From a virus (lineage: Duplodnaviria > Caudoviricetes), in the IMG/VR virus record IMGVR_UViG_2795386114_000001, positions 1 through 64,000 of that record: DNA of 64,000 nt. One strand, given 5' to 3'. Below are positions 19,569 through 62,086 of this stretch, piece after piece. Made by a program: the position numbers and the translations under genes. Below the pieces are notes generated by a model. The model had not been told where the DNA came from and did no database searches. It saw only the letters and a program-made list of their open reading frames with translations. Within the stretch, counting starts at the first letter, position 1. The number at the start of each line of letters is the position of its first letter.

Positions 19569-20527
19569 TAGGCCGCCTGCCCTTCCGTCGCGCCGCCCTG
19601 AGCGGCCTGGATCTCGGCGATACGGTCGTCCAACACCTTCCGCAACGTCGTCACGACACCGCGCTTGTCCACGAACTCCTCGTCCAGGACCCCGTGCTGG
19701 GCGCCGTCCTCCCCGATCTGGTTGAAGATCAGGACGTTCCTGCTCTTCCAGCAGTCGGACACCTGCCGCAGCAGCTTGGCCAGGTGCTCACTGGGCGGGC
19801 CAGGCGTCGGCCGGCTCGGCTCCACAGGCTGCTCGGCAGGCTCGGTCACGGGGACCGGCTCATCGTCCGTCTCAGCGCTGGTGCCCGGCTCCGGCTTCAC
19901 CGGCGGGTCCTCCGGCTCCGGCTGCGGCGGCGGCTGCTGCTTCCACTCCTGCGGCGGATGCGCAGCCGAGAAGCACACCACAGCGTCCCGGGAGCCGTCG
20001 TTGTACAGCGACAGACCAAACTGGTCACCCAGGTTGACCGCGCACCGCTTCAGCGCCTGCGACAGGCTCGTCTTCATGGCCATGTCGTGCGCGTCGCCCA
20101 CCGAGGGCTGGTTCACCGCATCCCCGGCAGCGCCGTCCTCCCAGTGGCAGATCTCCTGCCCAGAGGTGTCGAACACGGTCAGGCGGATCTGCGCTCGGTA
20201 GACGATGGTCCACGCCGTGTACGGATCCCCGTACTCCTCCCCGTTCCTGTTCTTCTTGCGGTGGTTGGGGTTGGCGTGCTCGTGCACCAGGTCCAGAGAA
20301 AGCGTCTCGATGGAGTAGCCGCCGAAGCCGAAGATGCGGATGAGCTGGCGGCGGACGTCCCACGCCTCAAGGTGGGCCAGCTTGTTCAGGGTGCGGACCC
20401 GGTTCGGGTTGATCCCTCCGTGCAGCATCCGCAGCTGGTACGGGGACAGGCGCGGGGCCTGGTTTTGGGTGTGCGAGGTCTGGCCCTCCGCCGTCGTGCT
20501 GGCGGGGGCCTCAATGGCAGACGCCAT
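19568..20527 (-). CDS. Rad52/Rad22 (Sak)-family single-strand annealing protein
   Basis: HLEAWDVRRQLIRIFGFGGYS...DAHDMAMKTSLSQALKRCAVNLGDQFGLSLY. Confidence 0.9.
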   Translation of the reverse strand: MASAIEAPASTTAEGQTSHTQNQAPRLSPYQLRMLHGGINPNRVRTLNKLAHLEAWDVRRQLIRIFGFGGYSIETLSLDLVHEHANPNHRKKNRNGEEYGDPYTAWTIVYRAQIRLTVFDTSGQEICHWEDGAAGDAVNQPSVGDAHDMAMKTSLSQALKRCAVNLGDQFGLSLYNDGSRDAVVCFSAAHPPQEWKQQPPPQPEPEDPPVKPEPGTSAETDDEPVPVTEPAEQPVEPSRPTPGPPSEHLAKLLRQVSDCWKSRNVLIFNQIGEDGAQHGVLDEEFVDKRGVVTTLRKVLDDRIAEIQAAQGGATEGQAA

Positions 20528-37487: not shown

Positions 37488-40139
37488 TCACGCTACTTTC
37501 GTCAGGCGGATACGGGAGTCGGTGTAGAGGGTGGTGGCGGTGGCGTTGGCGCCGCCTTGGGCCCAGCGCAGAGCGAACGTTCCGCCGGTGCTGCTCACGC
37601 GGAGGGTGCCGCGGACGATGACGCCGTAGGCGTTGGTGGAGACACCGCCGTAGACGCGGGTGGCGGCGATGTCTGTCGTTTCGGTGCGCACCGTGTAGCC
37701 CCAGGGGCTGGTGACGTCCTGCTGGGTGCCGTTGGAGGCGGTTCCGGAGACGACGGTGGTTCCGTTGCCGAGGCCCATCCACTCGCCGGCCGCGCCGGAG
37801 GGGGTGCTCCAGCCCATCTGGAAGTCACCGGGACCGCTGTACTTCAGCCAGCCGTCGATCTCGTAGATGGCGTTGGCGTCGACAGTGAAGGTGATCTGGG
37901 TGTCGTTGGTGGGGGTGGTGGTGTTGGTGCGGGTGTCGTCGGTGCTGCGCCGCTTGCTCTGGAATCCTCCGGTGCCGGCGACAGTGAGGTTGCCGTCCTT
38001 GTCGACGGAGAACTTGGAGACGCTGTTGACCAGCAGGTTCAGCAGGGTTCCGGTGTGTCCGGTGGCGGTGTTGACGTAGAGGGCGGCGTTGGAGGAGGCG
38101 GGCGGGTACACCTCGAGGCGCCCGTTGGTGAGCTGACCGCGGCCTGCTTCCACGATGAAGATGTTGTTCTGGCTGGAGTTGTCGGCGTTGATGTAGCTGA
38201 CTGATCCGTATCCGGAGCGCAGGTCGATGCGGCCGCCGATGGGCAGGCCGGTACTGGAACGGATGCGCTCGATGACAGCGAAGTCGTTACCCATGAAGGT
38301 GCGCCACTTCATGTCCGTGTAACCGGATCCGGTGAAGGTGCCGCTGTTCATGCCAAGGTCGGCTGCGCCTGCGGTGTTCTCGGAGACGTTGATGACGGCG
38401 CTGTTGGTCTGCGCGGCGTTAGTCATCCGCAGGTTGGGGTAGGTGGCGTCGGGGTCCAGCCACAGGACTGCTCCGGTGGTGCCCTGGACGAGCAGGCCGC
38501 GCTCGGAGAGTTCACCGATGGCGGTGGAGATGACCCCGTCGTAGACGAGGACTTTGTTCGCGGCGGACTCGTTGATCGTGATGCGGGCGCCCGAGGCGGC
38601 GGTCTGGAGGAGGGAGCCGGTGATGGTGCCGCCGGTGATGGTTTTGCCGGTAATAGCGTCCGCTGCCAGTGCGGTCGCGTCGACTGCGCCCGCTGAGATT
38701 TTGGCGGCGGTGATGGCGCCGTCGGCGATGTTCACCGCGTTGACGACGCCGGTGGGGACGGTCTCCAGGGTGACCTGGTCGACCTGCATGGTGCCGCCGG
38801 AGGTGGAGCCGATGAGGAGGCGTACCAGGGGGCGGATGTAGCGGACGCTGGTGTGGAGCTGTCCGGGGGCTTTGGGGTCGGGGCACGCGGTGATTGTGCC
38901 GGTCGCGGCGGTGCCCTTGGCGTAGCCGGTGACGGTGGTCCACGTGGTGCCGACCGAGACGGTGAGGTTGGCGGCGGCGATGTAGTGCTGGTTTGCGATG
39001 AGGTTGGCGCCGGTCTGGTTGACGCGGGTGGTGCCGTCGGCGGCGATGCCGGTGAGGCCGATGTACACGGTCGGTGTGCCGCTGACGGGGGTGACGGTGG
39101 TGCGGATGCGGGCGGTGACCTTGTACAGGGCGTCGGGGTCGAAGGGGGTGTTGGTGGTGCGTTCCAGGGTGGTGCGGCCGGTGGCCTGAATGACGGTGCT
39201 GCCCGCGCCGGCGTCGGTGACCCCGGTGACGACAGCCCAGGCGCCGGTGTCGGTGGGCTGCGTCCACAAGGTGGCGTCGCCCATCGCGTCGGTGATCTTC
39301 TGGGAGATGGAGTCGGCGATACCGACGGTGAGCTGGTTGGTGCTGATGGCCCCGGCTGCGACCTTCCCCGCGATGACCGAGTTGGCCGCGAGCTTGTCGG
39401 AAGTCACGGCGAGCGCGTCCAGCTTGGCGGTGGTGACCGCACCTGCGGCAATCTTCGACGCGTTGACGGCGTCGGTGTCGATCTGCGCTGCCTGCACGGC
39501 TGCGGCCACGATCTTCGGGGTGGTGATGGCGTTGTCGCTGATCTCCGTGGTTCCGATCGCCCCGACGGCGACCTTCGCCTGGGTGACCGCGTCGTCGGCG
39601 AGCTTGACGGTCGTGATGATGCCGTCCACGACATCGTCCGCGACAACCGGTGTCGGCTCCGTCGGCCCGACGATCCTTGACGGGGTGGAGGCCGTCCCGG
39701 AGGTGTTGCGGGCCACCAGCAGCACGTAGACGGGTTCATCGCACGCGACGACGGCGGTGGCGCCCTGCGCGGTTTCGATCGTCGCCTTCAGCGTGTCCGC
39801 GCCCGGCGTGTACGACGCGAGCGGGGAGACGTGGACTTCCGTGCGCTGCCAGTCCAGCGGCACCACTGCCCCGTCGGCGAACTGGCCGTCCCAGGACACG
39901 GTGACCCCGTTGATCATGCCGGTCACGATCGGGTCGGACGGCTGCGGCGGGGGCGGCCCGTTGACGATGTTCACCGCGGTCGTGCCGTCGGCCTGGACAC
40001 CGAGGAGGCCGCGCAGGCTTCCGTCGCCGTCGCGGACTTGTACGGCGGTGTTGTCGATGCTGGCGTGGGAGAGGCGAGCGGAGTTCTCCAGACGCTCGAG
40101 GCGCGCCCGCATGGACGCGAGTTCACGGCCGATGTCCAT
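37488..40139 (-). CDS. Minor tail / tail fibre protein
   Basis: FnIII-like segment, repeated ITT.KI.A.A motifs, carbohydrate-binding-like module. Confidence 0.8.
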   Translation of the reverse strand: MDIGRELASMRARLERLENSARLSHASIDNTAVQVRDGDGSLRGLLGVQADGTTAVNIVNGPPPPQPSDPIVTGMINGVTVSWDGQFADGAVVPLDWQRTEVHVSPLASYTPGADTLKATIETAQGATAVVACDEPVYVLLVARNTSGTASTPSRIVGPTEPTPVVADDVVDGIITTVKLADDAVTQAKVAVGAIGTTEISDNAITTPKIVAAAVQAAQIDTDAVNASKIAAGAVTTAKLDALAVTSDKLAANSVIAGKVAAGAISTNQLTVGIADSISQKITDAMGDATLWTQPTDTGAWAVVTGVTDAGAGSTVIQATGRTTLERTTNTPFDPDALYKVTARIRTTVTPVSGTPTVYIGLTGIAADGTTRVNQTGANLIANQHYIAAANLTVSVGTTWTTVTGYAKGTAATGTITACPDPKAPGQLHTSVRYIRPLVRLLIGSTSGGTMQVDQVTLETVPTGVVNAVNIADGAITAAKISAGAVDATALAADAITGKTITGGTITGSLLQTAASGARITINESAANKVLVYDGVISTAIGELSERGLLVQGTTGAVLWLDPDATYPNLRMTNAAQTNSAVINVSENTAGAADLGMNSGTFTGSGYTDMKWRTFMGNDFAVIERIRSSTGLPIGGRIDLRSGYGSVSYINADNSSQNNIFIVEAGRGQLTNGRLEVYPPASSNAALYVNTATGHTGTLLNLLVNSVSKFSVDKDGNLTVAGTGGFQSKRRSTDDTRTNTTTPTNDTQITFTVDANAIYEIDGWLKYSGPGDFQMGWSTPSGAAGEWMGLGNGTTVVSGTASNGTQQDVTSPWGYTVRTETTDIAATRVYGGVSTNAYGVIVRGTLRVSSTGGTFALRWAQGGANATATTLYTDSRIRLTKVA

Positions 40140-41242
40140 CACAGGCTCCCGTAGTGGTACATCGAGGCGGGCTTGAGGCTGACGACGGCCTGCGGGCCGC
40201 CCCGGGCGGTTGGCTTGATCGTCCATCCGGTGACGCGGCACCAGCCGGTGTAGGACGTCCACGCGTTGTGGATGCGGGTGTAGATGTCGTCGCCGACCTG
40301 CCACGCCCCGAACGGTGCGGCGTCGGTGTCGCGCAGAACGACCTGTTCGACGCTGCCGAGGGTCTGCCGCCTGGCCCGCTCCCATGCGACGCGGTCTTTG
40401 AGGACGTCGTTGCCGTTGATCTCCGGGTACTGCACGGCGGCCTCGAGGCGGAGGCGGCCGTTGCGGACAGCGGAGATCTGCCTCAGTTTCGCGCTGCCGT
40501 CACCGGCACCCGTCCCGATCACGACCTGCGCGTAGTCGTCACCGGAGAGGATCTCTTCGGGTTCTTCGATGATGTTGACGCCGGAAGAGAACGTGATGTC
40601 GGTGCGGCGGGTTCCCAGGCGTGGCCAGCCCAGCTGGATGCGTTTGATGACGTCGGTCTTACCCGTGTTCCAGGCGGTGGTGCACGTGTACTCGGGGGTG
40701 GCGTTGTCGGAAACGAGTTCGTCGACCTGGTCGCCGAGGCTCTTCGTGTCGTACCAGTAGGAGTGGTACTCGTCGCCAGGCACGCCGACCTTGGAGGTGC
40801 TGGTGGTGGTGTCGACGATGACGCCGAGGTCACCGTCGGGAACAGATTGGGCGTACTCCCAGATGTTGCGGATGACCTCGCAGCGGTCCGTGTACACGTA
40901 GGGGCCGCGGCCGCCGTGCTCGCCGTCCAGGTCGAAGCGGCGTTGCAGGTACGACGACCAGGAGGCGGCCTCGAGGCTGTAGTCGTTGCCGGAGGATCGG
41001 ACGTCCCAGATGAGGCCTCCCCACTGGATCTGCCCCTCGGATTCGACGTAGATGGCGGTGGTGCCGGGGTCGACGGTGGCTGGCTGGGAGGCGATCAGGC
41101 GCGGCGACAGCTTCCCCGTCAGACTGCCGGGCCCGGACAGTTCCGGCCCGTACTCCAGTTCCGTGACCGGGAGCGCGGTCGCCAGCCAGTCCCCGGTGAG
41201 GAGGTTCTGGGTGAGGACCCGGTCCGGGATGGGCTGGGTCAC
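40139..41242 (-). CDS. Minor tail (hub/Tal-like) protein
   Basis: WGGLIW...LGWPRLG...GTGAGDG; post-Dit position. Confidence 0.75.
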   Translation of the reverse strand: MTQPIPDRVLTQNLLTGDWLATALPVTELEYGPELSGPGSLTGKLSPRLIASQPATVDPGTTAIYVESEGQIQWGGLIWDVRSSGNDYSLEAASWSSYLQRRFDLDGEHGGRGPYVYTDRCEVIRNIWEYAQSVPDGDLGVIVDTTTSTSKVGVPGDEYHSYWYDTKSLGDQVDELVSDNATPEYTCTTAWNTGKTDVIKRIQLGWPRLGTRRTDITFSSGVNIIEEPEEILSGDDYAQVVIGTGAGDGSAKLRQISAVRNGRLRLEAAVQYPEINGNDVLKDRVAWERARRQTLGSVEQVVLRDTDAAPFGAWQVGDDIYTRIHNAWTSYTGWCRVTGWTIKPTARGGPQAVVSLKPASMYHYGSL

Positions 41243-42174
41243 CGGGGTGCCTCTTCGAACTGCACGTCGGCGACGAGGGTGGTGCCGGAGTCGACGTAGA
41301 TCCGTCCGGCCTGTCCGGAGGCGAGGCCGGCGGCGCGCACGCGCAGAAGCTGGGTGGTGTTGCGGTAGGCGGAAGGCAGGGTGAGGGTGTCGGCCATGAT
41401 GGCGGCGATACGGCGGGCGCCGCTGCCCTGGTTGTCGTCGAGGGTGGTGGGCTGCACGGACAGGCTGGCGCCGAACGTGGCGCTGATCTGGCCGTAGAAG
41501 TTGCCGAGGTCGTAGCGCAGGGGGCTGACGTCGATCTTGATGATGGCTTTGGTGGCCCAGTCGGGGATGGCGATGTTCCACCCGGCCGCCGTGCTGAAGT
41601 AGGAGTAGCTGGTGCTGCTGCCGATGCCGCTGCTGATGCTGGACGGTGACTGGGTGACCAGGGTGCGGGAGCGGCGCGGATTGGCGCACTTCCGCAGGTC
41701 GGTGATCATCGCGTTAGTGATGGTCCCTGTGGAGGCTGGGATGTCGATGCGCGCCAAGGGGATACCGGTGCCGGTCGGAACCGTAGTCGCCGAAGATGAG
41801 ACGTTCGATAGGACATCAATGAAAACGATCTCGTCGGTTGCCGGGTTGTGGCTGTATCCGTACTCGGGATCCTCAACGCGGACGATGACCATGTCCGAGC
41901 GCGGTGTGGCCCCAGTGGCCGCAATGTCAACGTTGATGGACCCGACGTTGCATGCGGCGTAGTGGCCTTGGAAGGTGTTGTCGCGCCCTTTGATGACACC
42001 CGAGCCATCGCCCACGGTTACTCCACCGCCAGGCGTCGATCGCTGCGTAACTTTCAGATCGTCGCCCTGAGTAATGCCCTCCGCCCCGTTGGCGAGGTCG
42101 CGGACCAGCATGCGGAACTGCTGCGCGGAGTGGGTGGCCCCGTTGGTGAGGATGGGCGCCGGGAAAAAGGCCAT
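41239..42174 (-). CDS. Minor tail/baseplate protein
   Basis: RSDMVIVRVEDPEY...IPLARIDIPAST.TIT..MITDLR. Confidence 0.75.
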   Translation of the reverse strand: MAFFPAPILTNGATHSAQQFRMLVRDLANGAEGITQGDDLKVTQRSTPGGGVTVGDGSGVIKGRDNTFQGHYAACNVGSINVDIAATGATPRSDMVIVRVEDPEYGYSHNPATDEIVFIDVLSNVSSSATTVPTGTGIPLARIDIPASTGTITNAMITDLRKCANPRRSRTLVTQSPSSISSGIGSSTSYSYFSTAAGWNIAIPDWATKAIIKIDVSPLRYDLGNFYGQISATFGASLSVQPTTLDDNQGSGARRIAAIMADTLTLPSAYRNTTQLLRVRAAGLASGQAGRIYVDSGTTLVADVQFEEAPR

Positions 42175-56470: not shown

Positions 56471-58369
56471 TCAAGAGGTGTTCCCCCTACTCCCCTGCGC
56501 CCCAGCGGCCGTGCCCGAATCGTCGTCCTCCAGGTCGTCGAGGTGGTCCCCGACGGCGGGCAGGACGACGGCCGGGGTCTCGGGCTCGTCGGGTGCCTGC
56601 CGGCCGAGGAACGCGGCAACCTCGTCCGGGTTTCCGAGGGCGTCAGCAAGGTCTCGGGCTTCCGTGAAGGAGCGGGCGTCAATCCGCTTGATCTCCTCTT
56701 CGGCGTCCTCGATGGGCCAGCCGATCTCCTGCAACCTGCGGATCGCGGTCTCCAGGGAGATGAGGCCGGCCTTGCGGGCGGTGGCGACTTCCTCGAGGAC
56801 CGCTGTCTTGTCCGTCGGGGTGTAGGCGCCGCGGGTCAGCTTCGCGGGGAGGACGGGGAGGCCGATCCAGTCGGGGTGCTGTCCGGCCTGGAAGAGGCGT
56901 TGCACGAACTTGGGGAGGAGCCGGTCGGCGTGGTCGCGGGCGAGGCGCATGCCGGAGATCAGGGAATCGAGCGGGCCGAGGGCGAGCTCGAGCTGGTAGC
57001 CGGAGGTGAACTGGGCGGGGTCGGCGGTGCCGAGGGCGACGGCGGGGAGCCGGGCGGTGCTGGCGGCCCGGTCCTTCAGATCGTGGACTTGGTTGCGGAG
57101 TTCGGCGAGGTTGGCGCTGGTATCGACGGTTCCGATGGAGCCGCCTTCGCCGAGGGTGAAGACGATGCCGGGGCCGGCGGTGTACTGAGACTGTGGGGTG
57201 AGGGCCTTGCCCGCGATGCCGATCATCGGGGAGCCGGTGGTGGCGGAGGCGCGGGCGGAGTCGGTGTCGGAGCCGGACAGCTCGTCGAACACCTGCAACA
57301 CCTTCGCCAGGCTGCTCTGCCCCCAGTGTTCGCCGGGCTCGGGGACGGTGTTGGGGACGTGGATGACCGGCACGAAGTCCTGATACAGGTCGAGCTGGTC
57401 GAGGACCTCGCCCTGGCCGTTGGTCGCGAAGTGCGCCTTGTCCATGGGCAGGGAGTCGATGTCGACGGGGCCTTTGAGGTCGCCGAGCTCCCAGGTGGCG
57501 TCGGTGAGGTAGACGGTCTTGTAGGAGGGCTGCTCGGACCACGGGTACAGGCGGGTGATGGCGCCCTGCCGGTCGAGGGTGTCACCGCGGGCGAGGAGAG
57601 GCTGGGCGGGCTGGTCGTCGGTCGCCTCGGACATGACCGAGGCGCGCACGGGGCGGCCGGTGCGGTCGACGCCGTTGGCGGTCTGGGGGCGGATCCAGTC
57701 GAGGTGGTAGGTGATGCGGCGCAGCCTGGCGGGGAGGTGGCGGGCCTTGTCTTCGGGGAGTTCCCACGCGAAGTGGACGCGGTCGGGGAAGTCGGAGCCG
57801 TCGGAGTCCTCGTCGATGACGGGGAAATAGAAGCCCGGGTCGTAGGTGCGGACCCGTACGCGCTGTTTGTCGGCATCCCAGTGCAGCAGGTACACCCCGT
57901 CGCCGAGGGAAACGGCCTTGCGTTCCGTCTGGAGCAGGCGCATGGGGAGAAGTTCCTCGTCGGCCCACTCGCGCAGCAGGGTCTGCACCTTCTCCGCGGT
58001 CTCCGCATCGGTGGTGGTCTGGTCTCCGCCGGCCTGCTCGGCGCCGGGCACGGTGATGGTCTGCTCGTCGCCGAGGACGTGGCTGGTGACCGTGTCGACG
58101 AACATGGACGGGTCGCCGAACTCGCGACGGTCGCGGGCGGCGTCTCCGTCACGGAACGCGGTGAGCTCGGCAACCTGGTTGTTGTCGTAGGCGGTGAGCA
58201 TCTTGTACGCGGCGAGGCGGCGTTCATCGGCGGCCGGCACCCAGGTGGCGTGGGCTTCGGGGAAGGCGCGCCGGTTGGGCATGCCGAGGTTGTCGCTGTA
58301 CAGGGGCTTGTAGTTCAGCCACGACCAGGCGTCGATGACGGCTGACTTGACGCCGGAGAAGAGGCCCAC
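56471..58369 (-). CDS. Portal protein
   Basis: SLGDGVY.L.WD, YDPGFYFP, FVPVIHVPN, WGQSSL, SGYQLEL; follows terL. Confidence 0.85.
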   Translation of the reverse strand: MGLFSGVKSAVIDAWSWLNYKPLYSDNLGMPNRRAFPEAHATWVPAADERRLAAYKMLTAYDNNQVAELTAFRDGDAARDRREFGDPSMFVDTVTSHVLGDEQTITVPGAEQAGGDQTTTDAETAEKVQTLLREWADEELLPMRLLQTERKAVSLGDGVYLLHWDADKQRVRVRTYDPGFYFPVIDEDSDGSDFPDRVHFAWELPEDKARHLPARLRRITYHLDWIRPQTANGVDRTGRPVRASVMSEATDDQPAQPLLARGDTLDRQGAITRLYPWSEQPSYKTVYLTDATWELGDLKGPVDIDSLPMDKAHFATNGQGEVLDQLDLYQDFVPVIHVPNTVPEPGEHWGQSSLAKVLQVFDELSGSDTDSARASATTGSPMIGIAGKALTPQSQYTAGPGIVFTLGEGGSIGTVDTSANLAELRNQVHDLKDRAASTARLPAVALGTADPAQFTSGYQLELALGPLDSLISGMRLARDHADRLLPKFVQRLFQAGQHPDWIGLPVLPAKLTRGAYTPTDKTAVLEEVATARKAGLISLETAIRRLQEIGWPIEDAEEEIKRIDARSFTEARDLADALGNPDEVAAFLGRQAPDEPETPAVVLPAVGDHLDDLEDDDSGTAAGAQGSRGNTS

Positions 58370-58385
58370 AGCTGTCCTTCCCGCT

Positions 58386-58403
58386 GTTCCAGGCCCCGCG
58401 CCT
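58386..58403 (-). promoter_or_regulatory. Late leader motif AGGCGCGGGGCCTGGAAC (portal), 7 nt after -10-like TACCCT
   Basis: Identical to 56431-56448. Confidence 0.7.
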
Positions 58404-58673
58404 GTGATCAGGGTACGGGCAAATGTGGGATGAGTTCCCCGCGGCCCAGGTGGGGCGCACGTTCCGGAACGTGCGCCCTCTAAGCGCATTAAGGCGGTAT
58501 TTGCACGATATGGAATGTGCTCCGTATCGCACTTCACACCAAGTTTCGGAGCATCGGGCTTAGTTGGGCTCCGCGAGTTCTAGAGTGGTCCACACGGTTC
58601 TGCGGGACCCCGTCCACCTTCCGGATCTAGATCGGGGGGAGGTCTTCCGATCATGTGAAGAAGGGGCGTGCAG

Positions 58674-58781
58674 GTGTTCGGAAACGACAAGCCGTCAGAC
58701 CTGGAGATCCTGATCCTGGTAGTCGCAGTGATCCAGTTGCAGCTGGATCTGACTCAGTGGATCAGTTCCCTCCCTGTCTGA
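58674..58781 (+). CDS. 35-aa hydrophobic peptide MFGNDKPSDLEILILVVAVIQLQLDLTQWISSLPV; candidate type I toxin
   Basis: AAGAAGGGG RBS, GTG start; ORF lies within a long hairpin; below the ORF-track length cutoff. Confidence 0.55.
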   Translation: MFGNDKPSDLEILILVVAVIQLQLDLTQWISSLPV

Positions 58782-58866
58782 CGGCTACCGTCACCCCCGG
58801 CGGTCGGCCATCCAGGTCGGCCGCCGGACTCGTTTCCGGTGCTCCCTCGCAAGGGAGCAACCCGTA
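58770..58866 (-). ncRNA. Candidate antisense antitoxin RNA (boundaries approximate)
   Basis: Minus-strand -10 TACAGT (58872-58877) followed by hairpins at 58840-58859 and 58797-58827, convergent on the peptide ORF. Confidence 0.35.
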
Positions 58867-59020
58867 CGGACACTGTAGGCATGTTGCTAGTACAGCGCTG
58901 CTGTTTCAGTGTAGAGAAATCACTTCGCGGGAAATGAAATCCCCATCTTGCTGGGCGTTCCTGGCACCAACGTAACTGATTTCACAGATCCCACATGCCA
59001 TCAGATTGTTGCTGTGCAGG

Positions 59021-60580
59021 TCATCGGCGTCCGCGCAGTCGCTGATCGCTGTAGTGCTGGGTGCCAAGTCCTTCACCTGCCGGGTCGGCGAGCGAGGTGA
59101 GGGCGTGCACGGCGGCGTCCATGCGGTCCGGCGAGTCCATGCCAGGAAGCCACGTCACCATCTGGCCCTCTAGCTCGGTGAATTCACCAACGTGGTGCAC
59201 TTTCCCTTGTTTGTACAATTGAGCGATTGGTTCGGCACGTAGGCGTTTGCCCTGTTTTGCGTGGACTTCGATAATTGAGGGCATCAGCATGCCGCTGGTC
59301 TCACCAGCGCGTACCAGTTCGGCCCAGGCCTGGCGTACGACCTGGGAGGCCATGTCGCCCCCGAAGTTGTTCTCCACGATGATCGCGTCGGCCTGGCGGT
59401 CGATGGCCAGCTTGCAGACCTCGGTACCCCAGGTGTCGGCGCCCATGGTGCGGGAGCGGTCGTCCAGGACGTACAGGTCGCCGTCGGCGTCTCTGGCGGC
59501 GCAGATGAGGCCGACTTCGTCGTTGCGGAGGGAGTCGCCGCCGGCGTGGTCGACGGCGACGACGATGCGGGTTGGGGTGATGCCGGGCCAGGCTTCGGGC
59601 CTGGTGCGGTTGCTGGTGATCCATGCCCACTTCCACACGCCGCCCTCGAGCGGGCGGGGCTTTTGCTGGTAGAGGGCGTACCAGACGCGTTCGCCGACGC
59701 TTTCGCGGATGTCTGCGAGTTCGTTGGCGTCGTACTGGTCGGGCCAGAGGGGGTCGCCGATCGCACGGTGGAGGGGGTCGTTGGGGCTGTCGGCGATGGC
59801 GGGGAGGTCGATCTGGAGCCAGCGGTGGGGTTCGTGTTGGAGGAGGCGGCCGGAGAGGTCGTCTTCGTGCCAGCGCGTGTTGATCAGGATCAAAGAGGCG
59901 CCGGGGGCGCGGCGGGTGAAGAACACGGAGCGGTACCACTCCCAGACTCGTTCGCGCTGGGCTGGGCTGGCGGCGTCGTCGTGGCCTTTGAACGGGTCGT
60001 CGATGATGCCGAGGTTGAAGCCCTTGCCGGTGAGGCCGCCGCCGACGCCTGCGGTGACCATGCCGCCGCGGACGCTTGAGCCGCGTTTCTGCTCGAGGTC
60101 GAAGCGGTTGGCGGCGTGGGAGGCGGCGTGGAGGCGGACACCGAGGACGCCGGAGTACTCGCGCAGCTGGTCGCGCACCCAGCGGCCGTGGTCGTCGGCA
60201 AGGTCGGCACCGTACGAGGCGATCATTACCCGGTGTTCGGGGTGTCGGCGCAGGTACCAGAGCGGGCCCCAGCGTGAGGCGCGCTGGCTCTTCCCGTGAC
60301 GGGGCGGGCACGTCAGCATCACTTGCAAGCGTTCCCCCGCGGCGATCCGCCGGAAAGCGCTGTCAATCATGTCCAGGTGGGGGGCCTGCTTCTCCCGACG
60401 CTCGGTGAGGACCGCGGCGAGCGCGCCCGGGGAGCGGTCCATCGCCATCTCGCGTTCGATGCGCGCGAGCTTGATGCGGGTCTCCGGGCGTGCCCTGGCC
60501 ACGACGCGGCGCCGCTGGGCGGGCGGAAGCGTCCGGTACTTCTCCTCAAGGGACGCCTGCCGTTCAGGCGCTGTCGTCAT
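59021..60580 (-). CDS. terL: Terminase large subunit
   Basis: PPRHGKS Walker A, IIDDP Walker B, TRWHEDDL, YQQ.P, VAVD, ENNFGG, PDRMDA. Confidence 0.95.
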   Translation of the reverse strand: MTTAPERQASLEEKYRTLPPAQRRRVVARARPETRIKLARIEREMAMDRSPGALAAVLTERREKQAPHLDMIDSAFRRIAAGERLQVMLTCPPRHGKSQRASRWGPLWYLRRHPEHRVMIASYGADLADDHGRWVRDQLREYSGVLGVRLHAASHAANRFDLEQKRGSSVRGGMVTAGVGGGLTGKGFNLGIIDDPFKGHDDAASPAQRERVWEWYRSVFFTRRAPGASLILINTRWHEDDLSGRLLQHEPHRWLQIDLPAIADSPNDPLHRAIGDPLWPDQYDANELADIRESVGERVWYALYQQKPRPLEGGVWKWAWITSNRTRPEAWPGITPTRIVVAVDHAGGDSLRNDEVGLICAARDADGDLYVLDDRSRTMGADTWGTEVCKLAIDRQADAIIVENNFGGDMASQVVRQAWAELVRAGETSGMLMPSIIEVHAKQGKRLRAEPIAQLYKQGKVHHVGEFTELEGQMVTWLPGMDSPDRMDAAVHALTSLADPAGEGLGTQHYSDQRLRGRR

Positions 60581-61103
60581 CCTCGTCCTCTTCGGCGTCC
60601 TCCAGCGCTTGGTCTTCGTCGTCCAGGTCGGCGTCGGGGTCGATGACCGGGATCTCGGCGTGTTCCTGGTCGGAGATGTCGATGAGTGCCATGAGCTCGG
60701 CTGCCTCGCCGGAGGAGAACGGGATGGCACCGCCGTCGGGGCCGGAGATCTCGGTGCGGACGGGGACCTTGAGGCCGAACAGGTCGGTGATGTCGGCGAT
60801 GTACTTGCGGGCCTGCTCGCCTGCCTTCAGGTCGGCTTCTCCGGTTTCGCCGACTGCGGCCGGCCAGACGGCGCGCAGGAGTTCCTCCAAGCGGGCGCCT
60901 TGGACGAAGCGGTACAGCTCGGCGTCGTGGACCTCGAGCTCCTTGGCCTTCTTGATGGCGCGGGAGAGGTCGGAGCGTGCGGTTGCGCGGGAGATGTTGA
61001 AGTGTTCGGCGATCTGGGCGGCGGTGCGGCCCTGGATCTTCATGATGAGCATCTCGCTGCGCCGCTGGGCAACGACGGCCTGCTTGGCCTTTGAGGGTGG
61101 CAT
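60564..61103 (-). CDS. terS: Terminase small subunit
   Basis: HTH GRTAAQIAEHFNISRATA, LFGL, TEISGPDGGAI; overlaps the terL start. Confidence 0.8.
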   Translation of the reverse strand: MPPSKAKQAVVAQRRSEMLIMKIQGRTAAQIAEHFNISRATARSDLSRAIKKAKELEVHDAELYRFVQGARLEELLRAVWPAAVGETGEADLKAGEQARKYIADITDLFGLKVPVRTEISGPDGGAIPFSSGEAAELMALIDISDQEHAEIPVIDPDADLDDEDQALEDAEEDEDDDSA

Positions 61104-61136
61104 GGCGGTGGGGCTCCCGCTCGTGTGTGGTTGTCG

Positions 61137-61148
61137 GGCCCCGCGCCT
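61137..61148 (-). promoter_or_regulatory. Late leader motif AGGCGCGGGGCC (terS)
   Basis: 12-bp core shared with the portal and scaffold leaders. Confidence 0.6.
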
Positions 61149-61217
61149 GCAACGAATGATCGCCGATTTCCTCGTTTGTGTTCCCCCTGACGGGGTGTGA
61201 GGGGGATGCTGCCCGGC

Positions 61218-61919
61218 ATGAACGTGATGCGTAGGGGGTGGGCTCCCGTGGTTGCCGGGGCGGCCGTGGTGGTGTTGGCGGGCTGCGGGGGCGGCTCGGA
61301 CGAAGGGGGGAAGCCGGAGACGTCGCTGTCGGCGAGCGTGGAGACGGCGCCTTCGGATGATGGTCTGTCTGGTGATGACCTGACGGAGGAGGAGCCGGCG
61401 GATGAGTATCCGGATACGGATGCGTCGCTGGCGTTCGATGAGAAGGCCGCCGGGGAGGGGTGGGAGGTGGACGGGTACGTGCAGCCGTCGGAGTACGTGC
61501 TGATGATGTGCGAGTCGATGGATGCGTGGGAGCCGGGTGCCGCTCAGACCCTCGCTCAGAATCATGTGCCGGACATGACCGATGTGGAGAAGTCGGTGCT
61601 GAAGGCGGGGGCGAAGCCGTTGTGCCCAAAGCATGCTTCGGAGGTGGCGGAGGCTTTGGGCGGGGATGTGTCGGTGCGGACGATGTCGTCGGGCACGTAC
61701 GAGATCGTCAAGGGTGCCGGGCTGGGGGAGGGTGTGGCGCCGCCGGGGACGTACAGGACGTCGGGGGATCTCGAGGGCTGCTACTGGGAGCGGACGACGA
61801 AGGCCGGGGGCATTGTCGACAACCAGTTCGCTACGGCTGCGCGTGAGATCAAGGTGACGGTGAGGGCGGGTGAGTTGTTCACGTCTCGGAAGTGCGGGAC
61901 GTGGACGTTGGTGAAGTAG
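61218..61919 (+). CDS. Lipoprotein
   Basis: Signal peptide with lipobox LAG-C, acidic linker, C..M...LCP domain, PGTYRT...CYWER...F.S..CG.W domain. Confidence 0.85.
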   Translation: MNVMRRGWAPVVAGAAVVVLAGCGGGSDEGGKPETSLSASVETAPSDDGLSGDDLTEEEPADEYPDTDASLAFDEKAAGEGWEVDGYVQPSEYVLMMCESMDAWEPGAAQTLAQNHVPDMTDVEKSVLKAGAKPLCPKHASEVAEALGGDVSVRTMSSGTYEIVKGAGLGEGVAPPGTYRTSGDLEGCYWERTTKAGGIVDNQFATAAREIKVTVRAGELFTSRKCGTWTLVK

Positions 61920-61937
61920 CCGGCCCGGAGACGTCAG

Positions 61938-62086
61938 ACGGCCCCGTGCGCCAGCCAGGGGGATTGGGTGGCTTACGGGGCCGTTGTGCTCGGGTGCCGG
62001 GTGGGGTGGGCGGTCCCGAGCGGTCTGGGGGTGTGCACGGCCCGGGGGTCCTTGGCGCGGGGACACTAAGGGTCCGGGCCGTGCAC
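61938..62086. terminator. Three consecutive stem-loops between the convergent lipoprotein and traB genes
   Basis: 61938-47/61975-84, 61988-94/62015-21 and perfect 14-bp 62032-45/62073-86. Confidence 0.6.

Follow-up and report, generated by a model that had tools for sequence, protein, structure and literature searches.

The DNA considered here (hereafter the window) comprises the first 64 kb, or 64,000 nucleotides (nt), of the virus record IMGVR_UViG_2795386114_000001, which is 92,782 bp long and carries direct terminal repeats. In this window the genes of the portal protein and of the large terminase (terL) lie on the minus strand and are separated by a gap of 651 bp, whose G+C content is 0.57-0.62 versus ~0.68-0.70 on the flanks. 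The gap holds, as the only copy in the record, a plus-strand open reading frame (ORF) of 35 codons enclosed in nested hairpins and placed between two convergent -10-like hexamers (Table 1). According to sequence comparison the ORF represents a genuine gene whose family is undescribed, its RNA structure is under selection, and the whole arrangement is a discrete, movable accessory cassette of ~455 bp carried by Streptomyces mobile elements, for which the role of a type I toxin-antitoxin module is tentatively considered below.

Table 1. Coordinates of the small-gene cassette, its parts and the two flanking genes in the window.
Feature	Position	Strand	Remarks
Portal gene	56471..58369	minus	phrog_64, E 1.5e-18
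Whole accessory cassette	58561..59015	+	extent of homology with copies in unrelated contexts
Sense -10-like hexamer TAGAGT	58581..58586	+	conserved in relatives
Predicted 5' leader	58593..58673	+	conserved hairpin ~58630-58651; putative transcription start
Shine-Dalgarno site GAAGGGG	58660-58666	+	7 nt ahead of GTG 58674
35-codon ORF MFGNDKPSDLEILILVVAVIQLQLDLTQWISSLPV	58674..58781	+	GTG start, TGA stop
Long nested hairpin enclosing the ORF	58690..58786	+	outer and three inner stems
Outer stem	58690-58706 / 58770-58786	+	17 nt, 88% complementary
Inner stem CTGATCC/GGATCAG	58710-16 / 58759-65	+	read in sequence
Inner stem AGTC/GACT	58721-24 / 58751-54	+	read in sequence
Apical stem GATCCAG/CTGGATC	58730-36 / 58743-49	+	read in sequence
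G+C-rich post-stop hairpin	58797..58827	+	13-nt arms, two G-U pairs; read as sense terminator
Second hairpin	58840..58859	.	8-bp arms, 100% complementary
Convergent -10-like hexamer TACAGT (ACTGTA on plus)	58872..58877	minus	candidate antisense RNA promoter
Conserved right arm, upstream of antisense -10	58878..59015	.	sequence conservation
terL, large terminase gene	59021..60730	minus	Pfam Terminase_6N/6C; phrog_38, E 1e-101

For comparison 16 distinct DNA loci, the window included, were assembled (cited below by L numbers or by plasmid name); many of them are related to one another. L005 is identical to L006 and L007, and L010 to L034, each of these groups being counted as one locus. The alignment of the window with the copy on plasmid pSglau1 spans from about TTAGTTG (58561) to GTTGCTGT (59008-59015). 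The hairpin of the leader coincides with the RNAalifold consensus hairpin in columns 39-60 of a nine-copy alignment, and in the minimum free energy structure the G-run of the Shine-Dalgarno site is paired with a C-run upstream in the leader. At the place of the second hairpin L001, L005, L039, L052, L010, and L004 carry hairpins of differing sequence. In the right arm 58 of 156 columns are invariant among the window, L001, L005, L039, and L052, and no convincing consensus structure was found for this arm on either strand (-13.8 / -16.9 kcal/mol). The hexamers, hairpins, Shine-Dalgarno site, and ORF that had been described in an initial annotation, made from the letters of the window alone, were all found where it had placed them.

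The family was defined with a profile of three ORF copies, which was searched against 1.84 billion representative proteins at E<=1e-3. Among the 20 matches 19 are proteins of 26-92 residues, mostly 30-35, with the motif in register, and follow the pattern M-x3-E-x-P-P-D-W-x2-W-x-L-x-V-A-L-I-Q-L-x-L-D-L-T-x-W-I-S; one entry, from S. antimycoticus, bears a hypothetical-protein annotation, and the others are nameless or "hypothetical protein". The top match (P0006), a tandem-repeat protein of 3678 residues that scored through 52 weak repeats, was dropped as an artefact, and the family alignment omits P0007, P0016, P0018, P0019, P0022, and P0024 owing to their extended or truncated ends. With the same profile a copy was detected in 8 of 401 sampled Streptomyces genomes, which together with the 19 relatives bears out the conservation of the peptide that the initial annotation had proposed to check by tBLASTn. 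The tBLASTn search of the peptide against plasmids and phages gave no matches and missed the known pSglau1 copy too, so that it was insensitive, probably through low-complexity masking, and is not evidence of absence.

Nucleotide searches resulted in few true copies. In blastn 52 of the 401 Streptomyces genomes gave matches at E<=0.01, and the ORF is really held only by three of them (G162, G001, and G116), the other matches being G+C-rich chance matches of 23-77 nt, chiefly to the terminator hairpin. A scan with a degenerate pattern returned 13 stretches (4 true, in Streptomyces contigs only) from contigs of species-representative genomes, 5 (4 true) from viral contigs, and 15 (1 true) from metagenome contigs. 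The best score in the ESM Atlas was 0.76, which is uninformative.

The coding evidence, though mixed, is sufficient, and it is made up of four observations. A Shine-Dalgarno site with a start codon is present in the window and in nine further loci (including L031, L013, L059, L063, L064, L065, L067, and L068); the stop falls at codon 28-35 in the ORF frame in 9/9 loci, the other two frames being unconserved; the length is kept among members sharing 38-77% peptide identity and differs by whole codons; and the hydrophobic positions show conservative exchanges in members down to 38% identity. Two other frames of the same DNA, one of 106 residues on the plus strand (58655-58975) and one of 42 residues on the minus strand (58754-58882), were rejected as not conserved, with stops at codon 4-9 in L001, L004, and L042 and a missing ATG in pSglau1. 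The pairwise ratio of non-synonymous to synonymous differences (pN/pS) is broad, 0.29-2.04 among six 35-codon copies, because the constraint on synonymous sites comes close to that on non-synonymous ones. In these six members codons 20-22 and 24-26 are invariant to the base, including TTG and GAT, which are disfavoured in high-G+C Streptomyces genes. Such joint constraint on protein and synonymous sites is to be expected if the RNA fold, and perhaps the antisense complement, matter as the product does. As a separate observation, TTA leucine codons occur in 3 of the 16 family ORFs (one in L013, ~1454-1549; two in L064 and one in L065, both ORFs at ~1494-1593 in the oriented index). TTA codons in Streptomyces depend on the bldA tRNA, and translation of these members may be tied to development.

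The fold itself was considerably more stable than expected from composition. The sense RNA of positions 58590-58870 reached -146.3 kcal/mol versus -113.0 +/- 5.5 for 200 shuffled sequences, none of which equalled it (z-score -6.05), and the opposite strand gave a z-score of -6.33. The whole arrangement recurs in the 15 other loci with a common architecture: a leader and Shine-Dalgarno site are followed by an ORF of 26-35 codons, whose E-P-P-D codons are engaged in a long stem with the stop codon and the bases after it, while the I-Q and L-D codons form an apical hairpin; 15-25 nt after the stop there is a G+C-rich hairpin, and then a second hairpin of variable sequence.

The nested hairpins noticed in the window proved to carry compensatory changes across loci. 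RNAalifold on nine copies predicted 51 pairs, 10 of them with compensatory changes. For example, an A-U pair at the base of the long stem is G-C in pSglau1, L042 has two compensated changes in the long hairpin, L067 and L068 form perfect stems of 9 and 11 bp whose 3' arm changed along with the proline codons, and in L064 ATCCAG/CTGGAT became GTCCAG/CTGGAC. The duplex of a locus's own 5' and 3' arms is better than the mean cross-locus duplex in 15/16 loci (the exception is L039) and ranks 1-3 of 16 in 11/16. In the post-stop hairpin the column pair 239/261 is CG in 6 copies and GC in 3, and this hairpin is steadier as sense RNA in 9/9 loci, by 3.9-8.7 kcal/mol (-27.6 versus -19.2 kcal/mol for the antisense in the window), which fits a terminator of the small gene that would still let minus-strand transcription pass. 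As a further observation, the 5' arm of the ORF stem (58693-58705) has a second potential partner in the terminator hairpin, namely its 3' half (58811-58823; 13 nt, 85% complementary), and by exchanging partners the RNA might switch between closure of the ORF and anti-termination.

These data raise the question of whether the cassette is primarily an RNA element that acts in cis or as a regulator, either as one structured small RNA or as a pair of sense and antisense RNAs; the ORF would then be a by-product of G+C-rich palindromes or a secondary, dual-function feature. Such a reading would account for the invariance of the apical hairpin at nucleotide level, for a pN/pS of ~1, for the strong fold of both strands, and for the peptide pairs I-Q..L-D (V-Q..L-D in L064), which are the translated arms of one hairpin (ATCCAG/CTGGAT or GTCCAG/CTGGAC). 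It is distinctly unlikely, however, in view of the Shine-Dalgarno sites and starts of the window and nine further loci, the kept length with whole-codon differences, and the conservative exchanges at hydrophobic positions; a comparison with Rfam gave no family match either, its 5 sub-threshold hits all being to eukaryotic families.

The cassette was found in several unrelated settings. In 7 of 16 loci (the window, L005, L010, L039, L042, L052, and the divergent L059) it occupies the terL-portal gap of ZL12-like elements; the right flanks of these copies align with the 3' end of the window terL, and the neighbour in L005 is terL by Pfam. In two loci (pSglau1 and L004) it stands at the trailer (old) end of a type I-E CRISPR array, convergent with the array, and in one in the interval between tRNA-Thr and a convergent tyrosine integrase; the remaining 6/16 have other or unknown contexts, often of lower G+C. 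The sole match to the inner gap in the plasmid collection was pSglau1, a 170-kb linear plasmid of S. glaucescens (79.7% over 274 bp), where the copy lies away from phage genes, between two type I-E arrays, with cas3 and cse1-cas6e ~4 kb off; a frame of 694 residues beside it, tried as a portal gene, was rejected as a CRISPR array read as protein. The cassette described in the initial annotation is thus a discrete accessory element, borne by mobile elements and recurring in 16 loci of varied context.

This recurrence is also what decides against a chance ORF with chance hairpins in a non-coding spacer. High-G+C DNA does yield many spurious ORFs, and no canonical promoter or terminator was found; nevertheless, the fold z-score of -6.05, the 19 small-protein relatives, and the occurrence of 16 loci in at least 4 unrelated contexts refute the idea through conservation and leave it with next to no probability.

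The terL-portal gap differs in content among related phage-plasmids, and on this ground it is taken, from sequence comparison, to be a hot spot for small, oppositely oriented hydrophobic-peptide genes. A related S. chartreusis plasmid has a gap of just 94 bp. In phage ZL12 (542 bp; L058 3670-3790) the gap contains an unrelated plus-strand ORF of 39 codons, basic at the N-terminus and hydrophobic in its tail, with a hairpin after it, and in the JCM17656 plasmid (828 bp; L059 3858-3945) a divergent family member of 26 codons (hidden Markov model E 5e-4), also followed by a hairpin. The cassette stands tail-to-tail with its downstream neighbour wherever the direction of the latter is known, namely in phage-plasmids, at the two CRISPR loci, at the integrase locus, and in L031; since this amounts to about five independent cases, the regularity is suggestive only. 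In L004 direct repeats of ~80 bp (803-880 / 1510-1590; 72% identical over 67 nt) flank the cassette by the CRISPR trailer and cover the ribosome-binding site and first codons (..HWPFSIEP..) of two small paralogous plus-strand genes; they may be a trace of cassette insertion or duplication.

The position of two of the 16 loci at type I-E trailer ends (one of them, pSglau1, with cas3 and cse1-cas6e nearby) and the 32/32-nt match of one pSglau1 spacer to the phage-plasmid recall CreTA-type CRISPR guards, in which Cascade with a guide resembling CRISPR RNA (crRNA) represses a toxin and so makes cells depend on the type I-E system next to it; the copy in the phage-plasmid would then be a hijacked one. 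This alternative is very improbable. The cassette contains no repeat-like sequence, and no I-E repeat core was found in the window or in L005, L010, L034, and L039; the longest exact match of 83 spacers to three cassettes was 10-12 nt, which is the chance level; no array is near 14/16 loci in the DNA examined; and the product is a protein with its own Shine-Dalgarno site, while CreT toxins are RNAs according to the available portions of PMC8501985 and PMC10097628. Membership in CreTA was therefore rejected, there being neither a crRNA-like guide with repeat flanks nor a spacer-promoter match, and a degenerate I-E repeat at 58432-58461 was rejected because of mismatches in the loop and 3' handle.

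The spacer match is an observation in its own right. The spacer, from the pSglau1 type I-E array by cas3 (~30789), matches window positions 40953-40984, which lie inside the overlapping long ORFs 40139..41689 (-) and 40154..41299 (+); the cassette-carrying pSglau1 thus keeps an immune memory of this phage-plasmid family as well. With a second pSglau1 spacer there is a weak match (26/30 nt) at 19581-19610.

Both -10-like hexamers recur in the family. On the plus strand a TAnnnT stands 55-125 nt before the start in 16/16 loci; in 11 of them it is TAGAGT, 73-125 nt before the start codon, and in the other 5 another TAnnnT. Past the stop, at a distance of 63-132 nt, 16/16 loci have a minus-strand TAnnnT, which takes the form TA[CG]AGT in 9/16, the TACAGT being replaced by TAGAGT in L010 and L064 with the -10 pattern kept. 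At the predicted start of the antisense RNA a palindrome, CCGTACGG, was observed (58862-58869), and across the antisense -10 from it a related block GTAC(G/A)GCGCTGC (58889-58900). Both are conserved in L001, L005, L039, and L052 and may be operator sites bracketing the antisense promoter.

The product of the ORF was modelled with AlphaFold2 on an alignment of 17 sequences as a single helix of residues 9-31 behind an acidic tail (mean predicted local distance difference test, pLDDT, 85.9). The 23 residues of the predicted helix are long enough to cross a membrane, and a membrane-active helix is plausible in this model. Gln21 and Asp25, one helical turn apart, are nearly invariant. The initial annotation had described a hydrophobic ORF of 35 residues; the length stands, and the best 19-residue Kyte-Doolittle mean of the window peptide is 1.88, but the peptide is only moderately hydrophobic and is net anionic. 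As in type I toxins, the product is a small protein (<60 residues) with a hydrophobic, potentially membrane-spanning helix, and its messenger RNA (mRNA) is structured in a way that would limit translation.

With somewhat less than even confidence, a type I toxin-antitoxin module is favoured as the reading of this locus, in view of a discrete cassette borne by mobile elements, a peptide that is conserved, hairpins that co-vary, a terminator hairpin biased towards one strand, and -10 hexamers kept among the loci. It is proposed that the plus-strand promoter (-10 TAGAGT) would give an mRNA of ~240 nt comprising an 80-nt structured leader, the Shine-Dalgarno site, the 35-codon ORF, and the G+C-rich terminator hairpin. 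The product would consist of an acidic N-terminal tail (E-P-P-D-W consensus) and one 23-residue helix with a conserved Gln/Asp stripe, which may insert into or act on the membrane and would be harmful if overproduced. Two layers of control can be considered. In the first the fold of the mRNA would shut the ORF in the long hairpin, the E-P-P-D codons being paired with the stop region; in the second an RNA from the convergent -10 TACAGT, complementary to the 3' end of the mRNA or to the whole of it, would act as antitoxin, and read-through from the convergent neighbour possibly adds to the antisense RNA. Such logic would be that of a type I toxin-antitoxin system with convergent 3'-overlapping transcripts, and the module would make its carrier more stable or play a part when mobile elements are in conflict with one another.

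Several facts weigh against a type I toxin-antitoxin module. The Kyte-Doolittle 19-residue mean is at least 1.6 in only 8/17 peptides, the net charge is -3 in the window peptide and -2 to -5 in 17/17, and the C-terminal tail of the window peptide has no basic residue, so that the cationic terminus common in type I toxins (PMC5961336) is lacking. No family, the type I toxin families (Hok, Fst, Ldr, TisB, Ibs, TxpA, etc.) included, was matched at E<=10 by 3 members in Pfam and NCBIfam, and there were 0 family matches in PADLOC and 0 for 17 members in PHROGs. A pN/pS near 1 in many pairs provides no independent proof of purifying selection on the protein. The consensus scan of 58300-59100 found 0 canonical sigma-70 promoters, neither -10 having a canonical -35, and 0 U-tract terminators; consequently the promoter calls rest on the -10 hexamers with their conservation, and the terminator call on the hairpin with its conservation. 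By base composition TAnnnT is expected by chance in ~4/10 loci per 140 nt, and many loci are related, so that the convergent hexamer is a candidate antisense RNA promoter that is well supported only within the clade of the window and in a few outliers. Among sequencing runs listed as containing this stretch there were two of DNA and none recorded as RNA. Transcription from the sense and antisense promoters, translation, membrane action, and the antitoxin action of the antisense RNA are steps that we infer, and the toxicity of the peptide is inferred purely. The architecture claimed in the initial annotation (own -10, leader, ribosome-binding site, ORF, hairpins, and convergent -10) stands, but the peptide, being anionic, is atypical of the class. 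The further suggestion of that annotation, that the terL read-through transcript would silence the ORF, is weakened, since the portal gene has its own conserved 47-bp leader and read-through is not demonstrably needed.

Some of these facts favour an ordinary accessory small-protein gene (a "moron") devoid of antitoxin logic, encoding a non-toxic effector, e.g., a membrane helix or one that binds proteins, with a part in superinfection exclusion, in anti-defence, or in modulating the host. In that case only mRNA stability and termination would be set by the hairpins, and the minus-strand hexamer would be the neighbour's promoter or nothing. This account, which is unlikely but to be taken seriously, agrees with the conservation of gene, promoter, and terminator, with carriage by mobile elements, with the different small ORFs that relatives hold in the terL-portal hot spot, with peptides that are anionic and moderately hydrophobic unlike classic type I toxins, and with a toxicity and an antisense RNA that are both predicted ones. 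On the other hand, it leaves unexplained why synonymous constraint equals non-synonymous constraint, why a co-varying long stem surrounds the whole ORF, and why a convergent -10-like hexamer recurs at similar distance in loci whose neighbours differ throughout.

The type I toxin-antitoxin reading can be carried one step further, to a family that senses the transcription of its neighbour. Read-through from the neighbour together with a weak antisense promoter of the cassette's own would form the antitoxin, and silencing, deletion, or loss of the neighbour would free the anionic helical peptide of 26-35 residues; in this way the cassette would stand guard over phage-plasmids, over integrative elements, and over CRISPR arrays. 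This extension is quite improbable.

The carrier is, by sequence comparison, a ZL12-like Streptomyces phage-plasmid, because its terL is 70% identical to pZL12.67c and its portal 65% to pZL12.66c of Streptomyces phage ZL12 and because the portal leader is common to 12 plasmids. Phage ZL12 and 12 Streptomyces plasmids of ~88-94 kb have this leader (47 bp, window 58372-58420) at 88-100% identity, and the rest of the terL-portal gap is not shared by them. On the minus strand the leader contains TACCCT ~45 nt ahead of the portal start and may be the portal's own promoter or a processing site. Between the cassette and the portal a perfect 26-bp palindrome (GGGCGCACGTTCC / GGAACGTGCGCCC) lies at 58453-58478, and it is not conserved among the relatives examined. 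On the other side, the ZL12 homologue (486 residues) aligns with the terL ORF of 569 codons only from residue 85, and this ORF probably reaches too far at its 5' end, the excess part overlapping another ORF upstream (60564-62066) with a sigma-70 region 4 helix-turn-helix that matches phrog_645.

As to novelty, full-text literature searches brought up neither a described type I system from Streptomyces or from Actinobacteria nor any account of the present peptide family, which agrees with the remark of the initial annotation that such loci are poorly described in Streptomyces. If the favoured reading is true, the cassette would be, as far as these searches show, the first type I system described in Actinobacteria, and once validated it would bring into the class a major antibiotic-producing phylum and a toxin of unusual anionic design. 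If there is no toxin, it would still represent a new and sharply defined small-gene family in which protein sequence and RNA fold are jointly constrained. As to practical use, the cassette shows where ZL12-like phage-plasmids have a hot spot of insertion, and it is a candidate stabilising module for Streptomyces vectors.

Among known systems hok/sok keeps its toxin mRNA inactive by long-range intramolecular pairing. The pairing of the E-P-P-D codons with the stop region and of the Shine-Dalgarno G-run with the leader C-run in the minimum free energy fold is similar to this; unlike in hok/sok, there is no mok-like overlapping leader ORF, the candidate antisense promoter is at the 3' and not the 5' end, and no homology exists. 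With CreTA the cassette shares the place of a small toxic-element candidate beside type I CRISPR loci, in 2/16 loci, but it differs from what the available CreTA descriptions report in having no crRNA-like guide, degenerate repeats, or spacer-promoter match and in that the candidate toxin is a protein.

The closest functional analogue, by likeness of described features, is the type I toxin-antitoxin system with convergent, 3'-overlapping transcripts. In Bacillus subtilis the txpA/RatA, bsrG/SR4, and yonT/SR6 pairs likewise have convergent promoters, 3' overlap, and prophage-like residence (PMC5961336, PMC5848175, as far as their available text goes, and in part general background); in contrast, Pfam and NCBIfam give no sequence relation to them, the charge pattern of the toxin differs, and the antisense RNA of the present cassette is a predicted one. 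The available part of a survey of type I families presents them as phylum-restricted and leaves Actinobacteria unmentioned (PMC5367252).

The most extensive likeness is to the Clostridioides difficile modules CD2517.1/RCd8 and CD2907.1/RCd9, for which the portion of PMC5961336 available describes leaders of 83-88 nt, structured mRNAs, sequestered ribosome-binding sites, and overlapping convergent antisense RNAs, at sites beside CRISPR arrays and in prophages. Their toxins have 50-53 residues with an N-terminal hydrophobic region and a lysine-rich C-terminus, and toxicity, antisense RNAs, and rescue were proven experimentally (PMC5961336). The peptides described here are shorter (26-35 residues), have an acidic N-terminus, and are net anionic, the phylum and the CRISPR subtype are other ones, and the features were read from sequence and likened by description. 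What both have in common, as far as that text allows comparison, is a small ORF, a structured mRNA with a leader of 80-90 nt, a convergent 3' overlap (a predicted one in the present cassette), and a prophage-like or CRISPR-side location. According to the C. difficile authors, in the same available text, the co-localisation of type I toxin-antitoxin loci with CRISPR arrays was unreported elsewhere (PMC5961336); the present family, with two copies at CRISPR trailers and seven in phage-plasmids, echoes it, and the link between CRISPR and type I systems may be more general.

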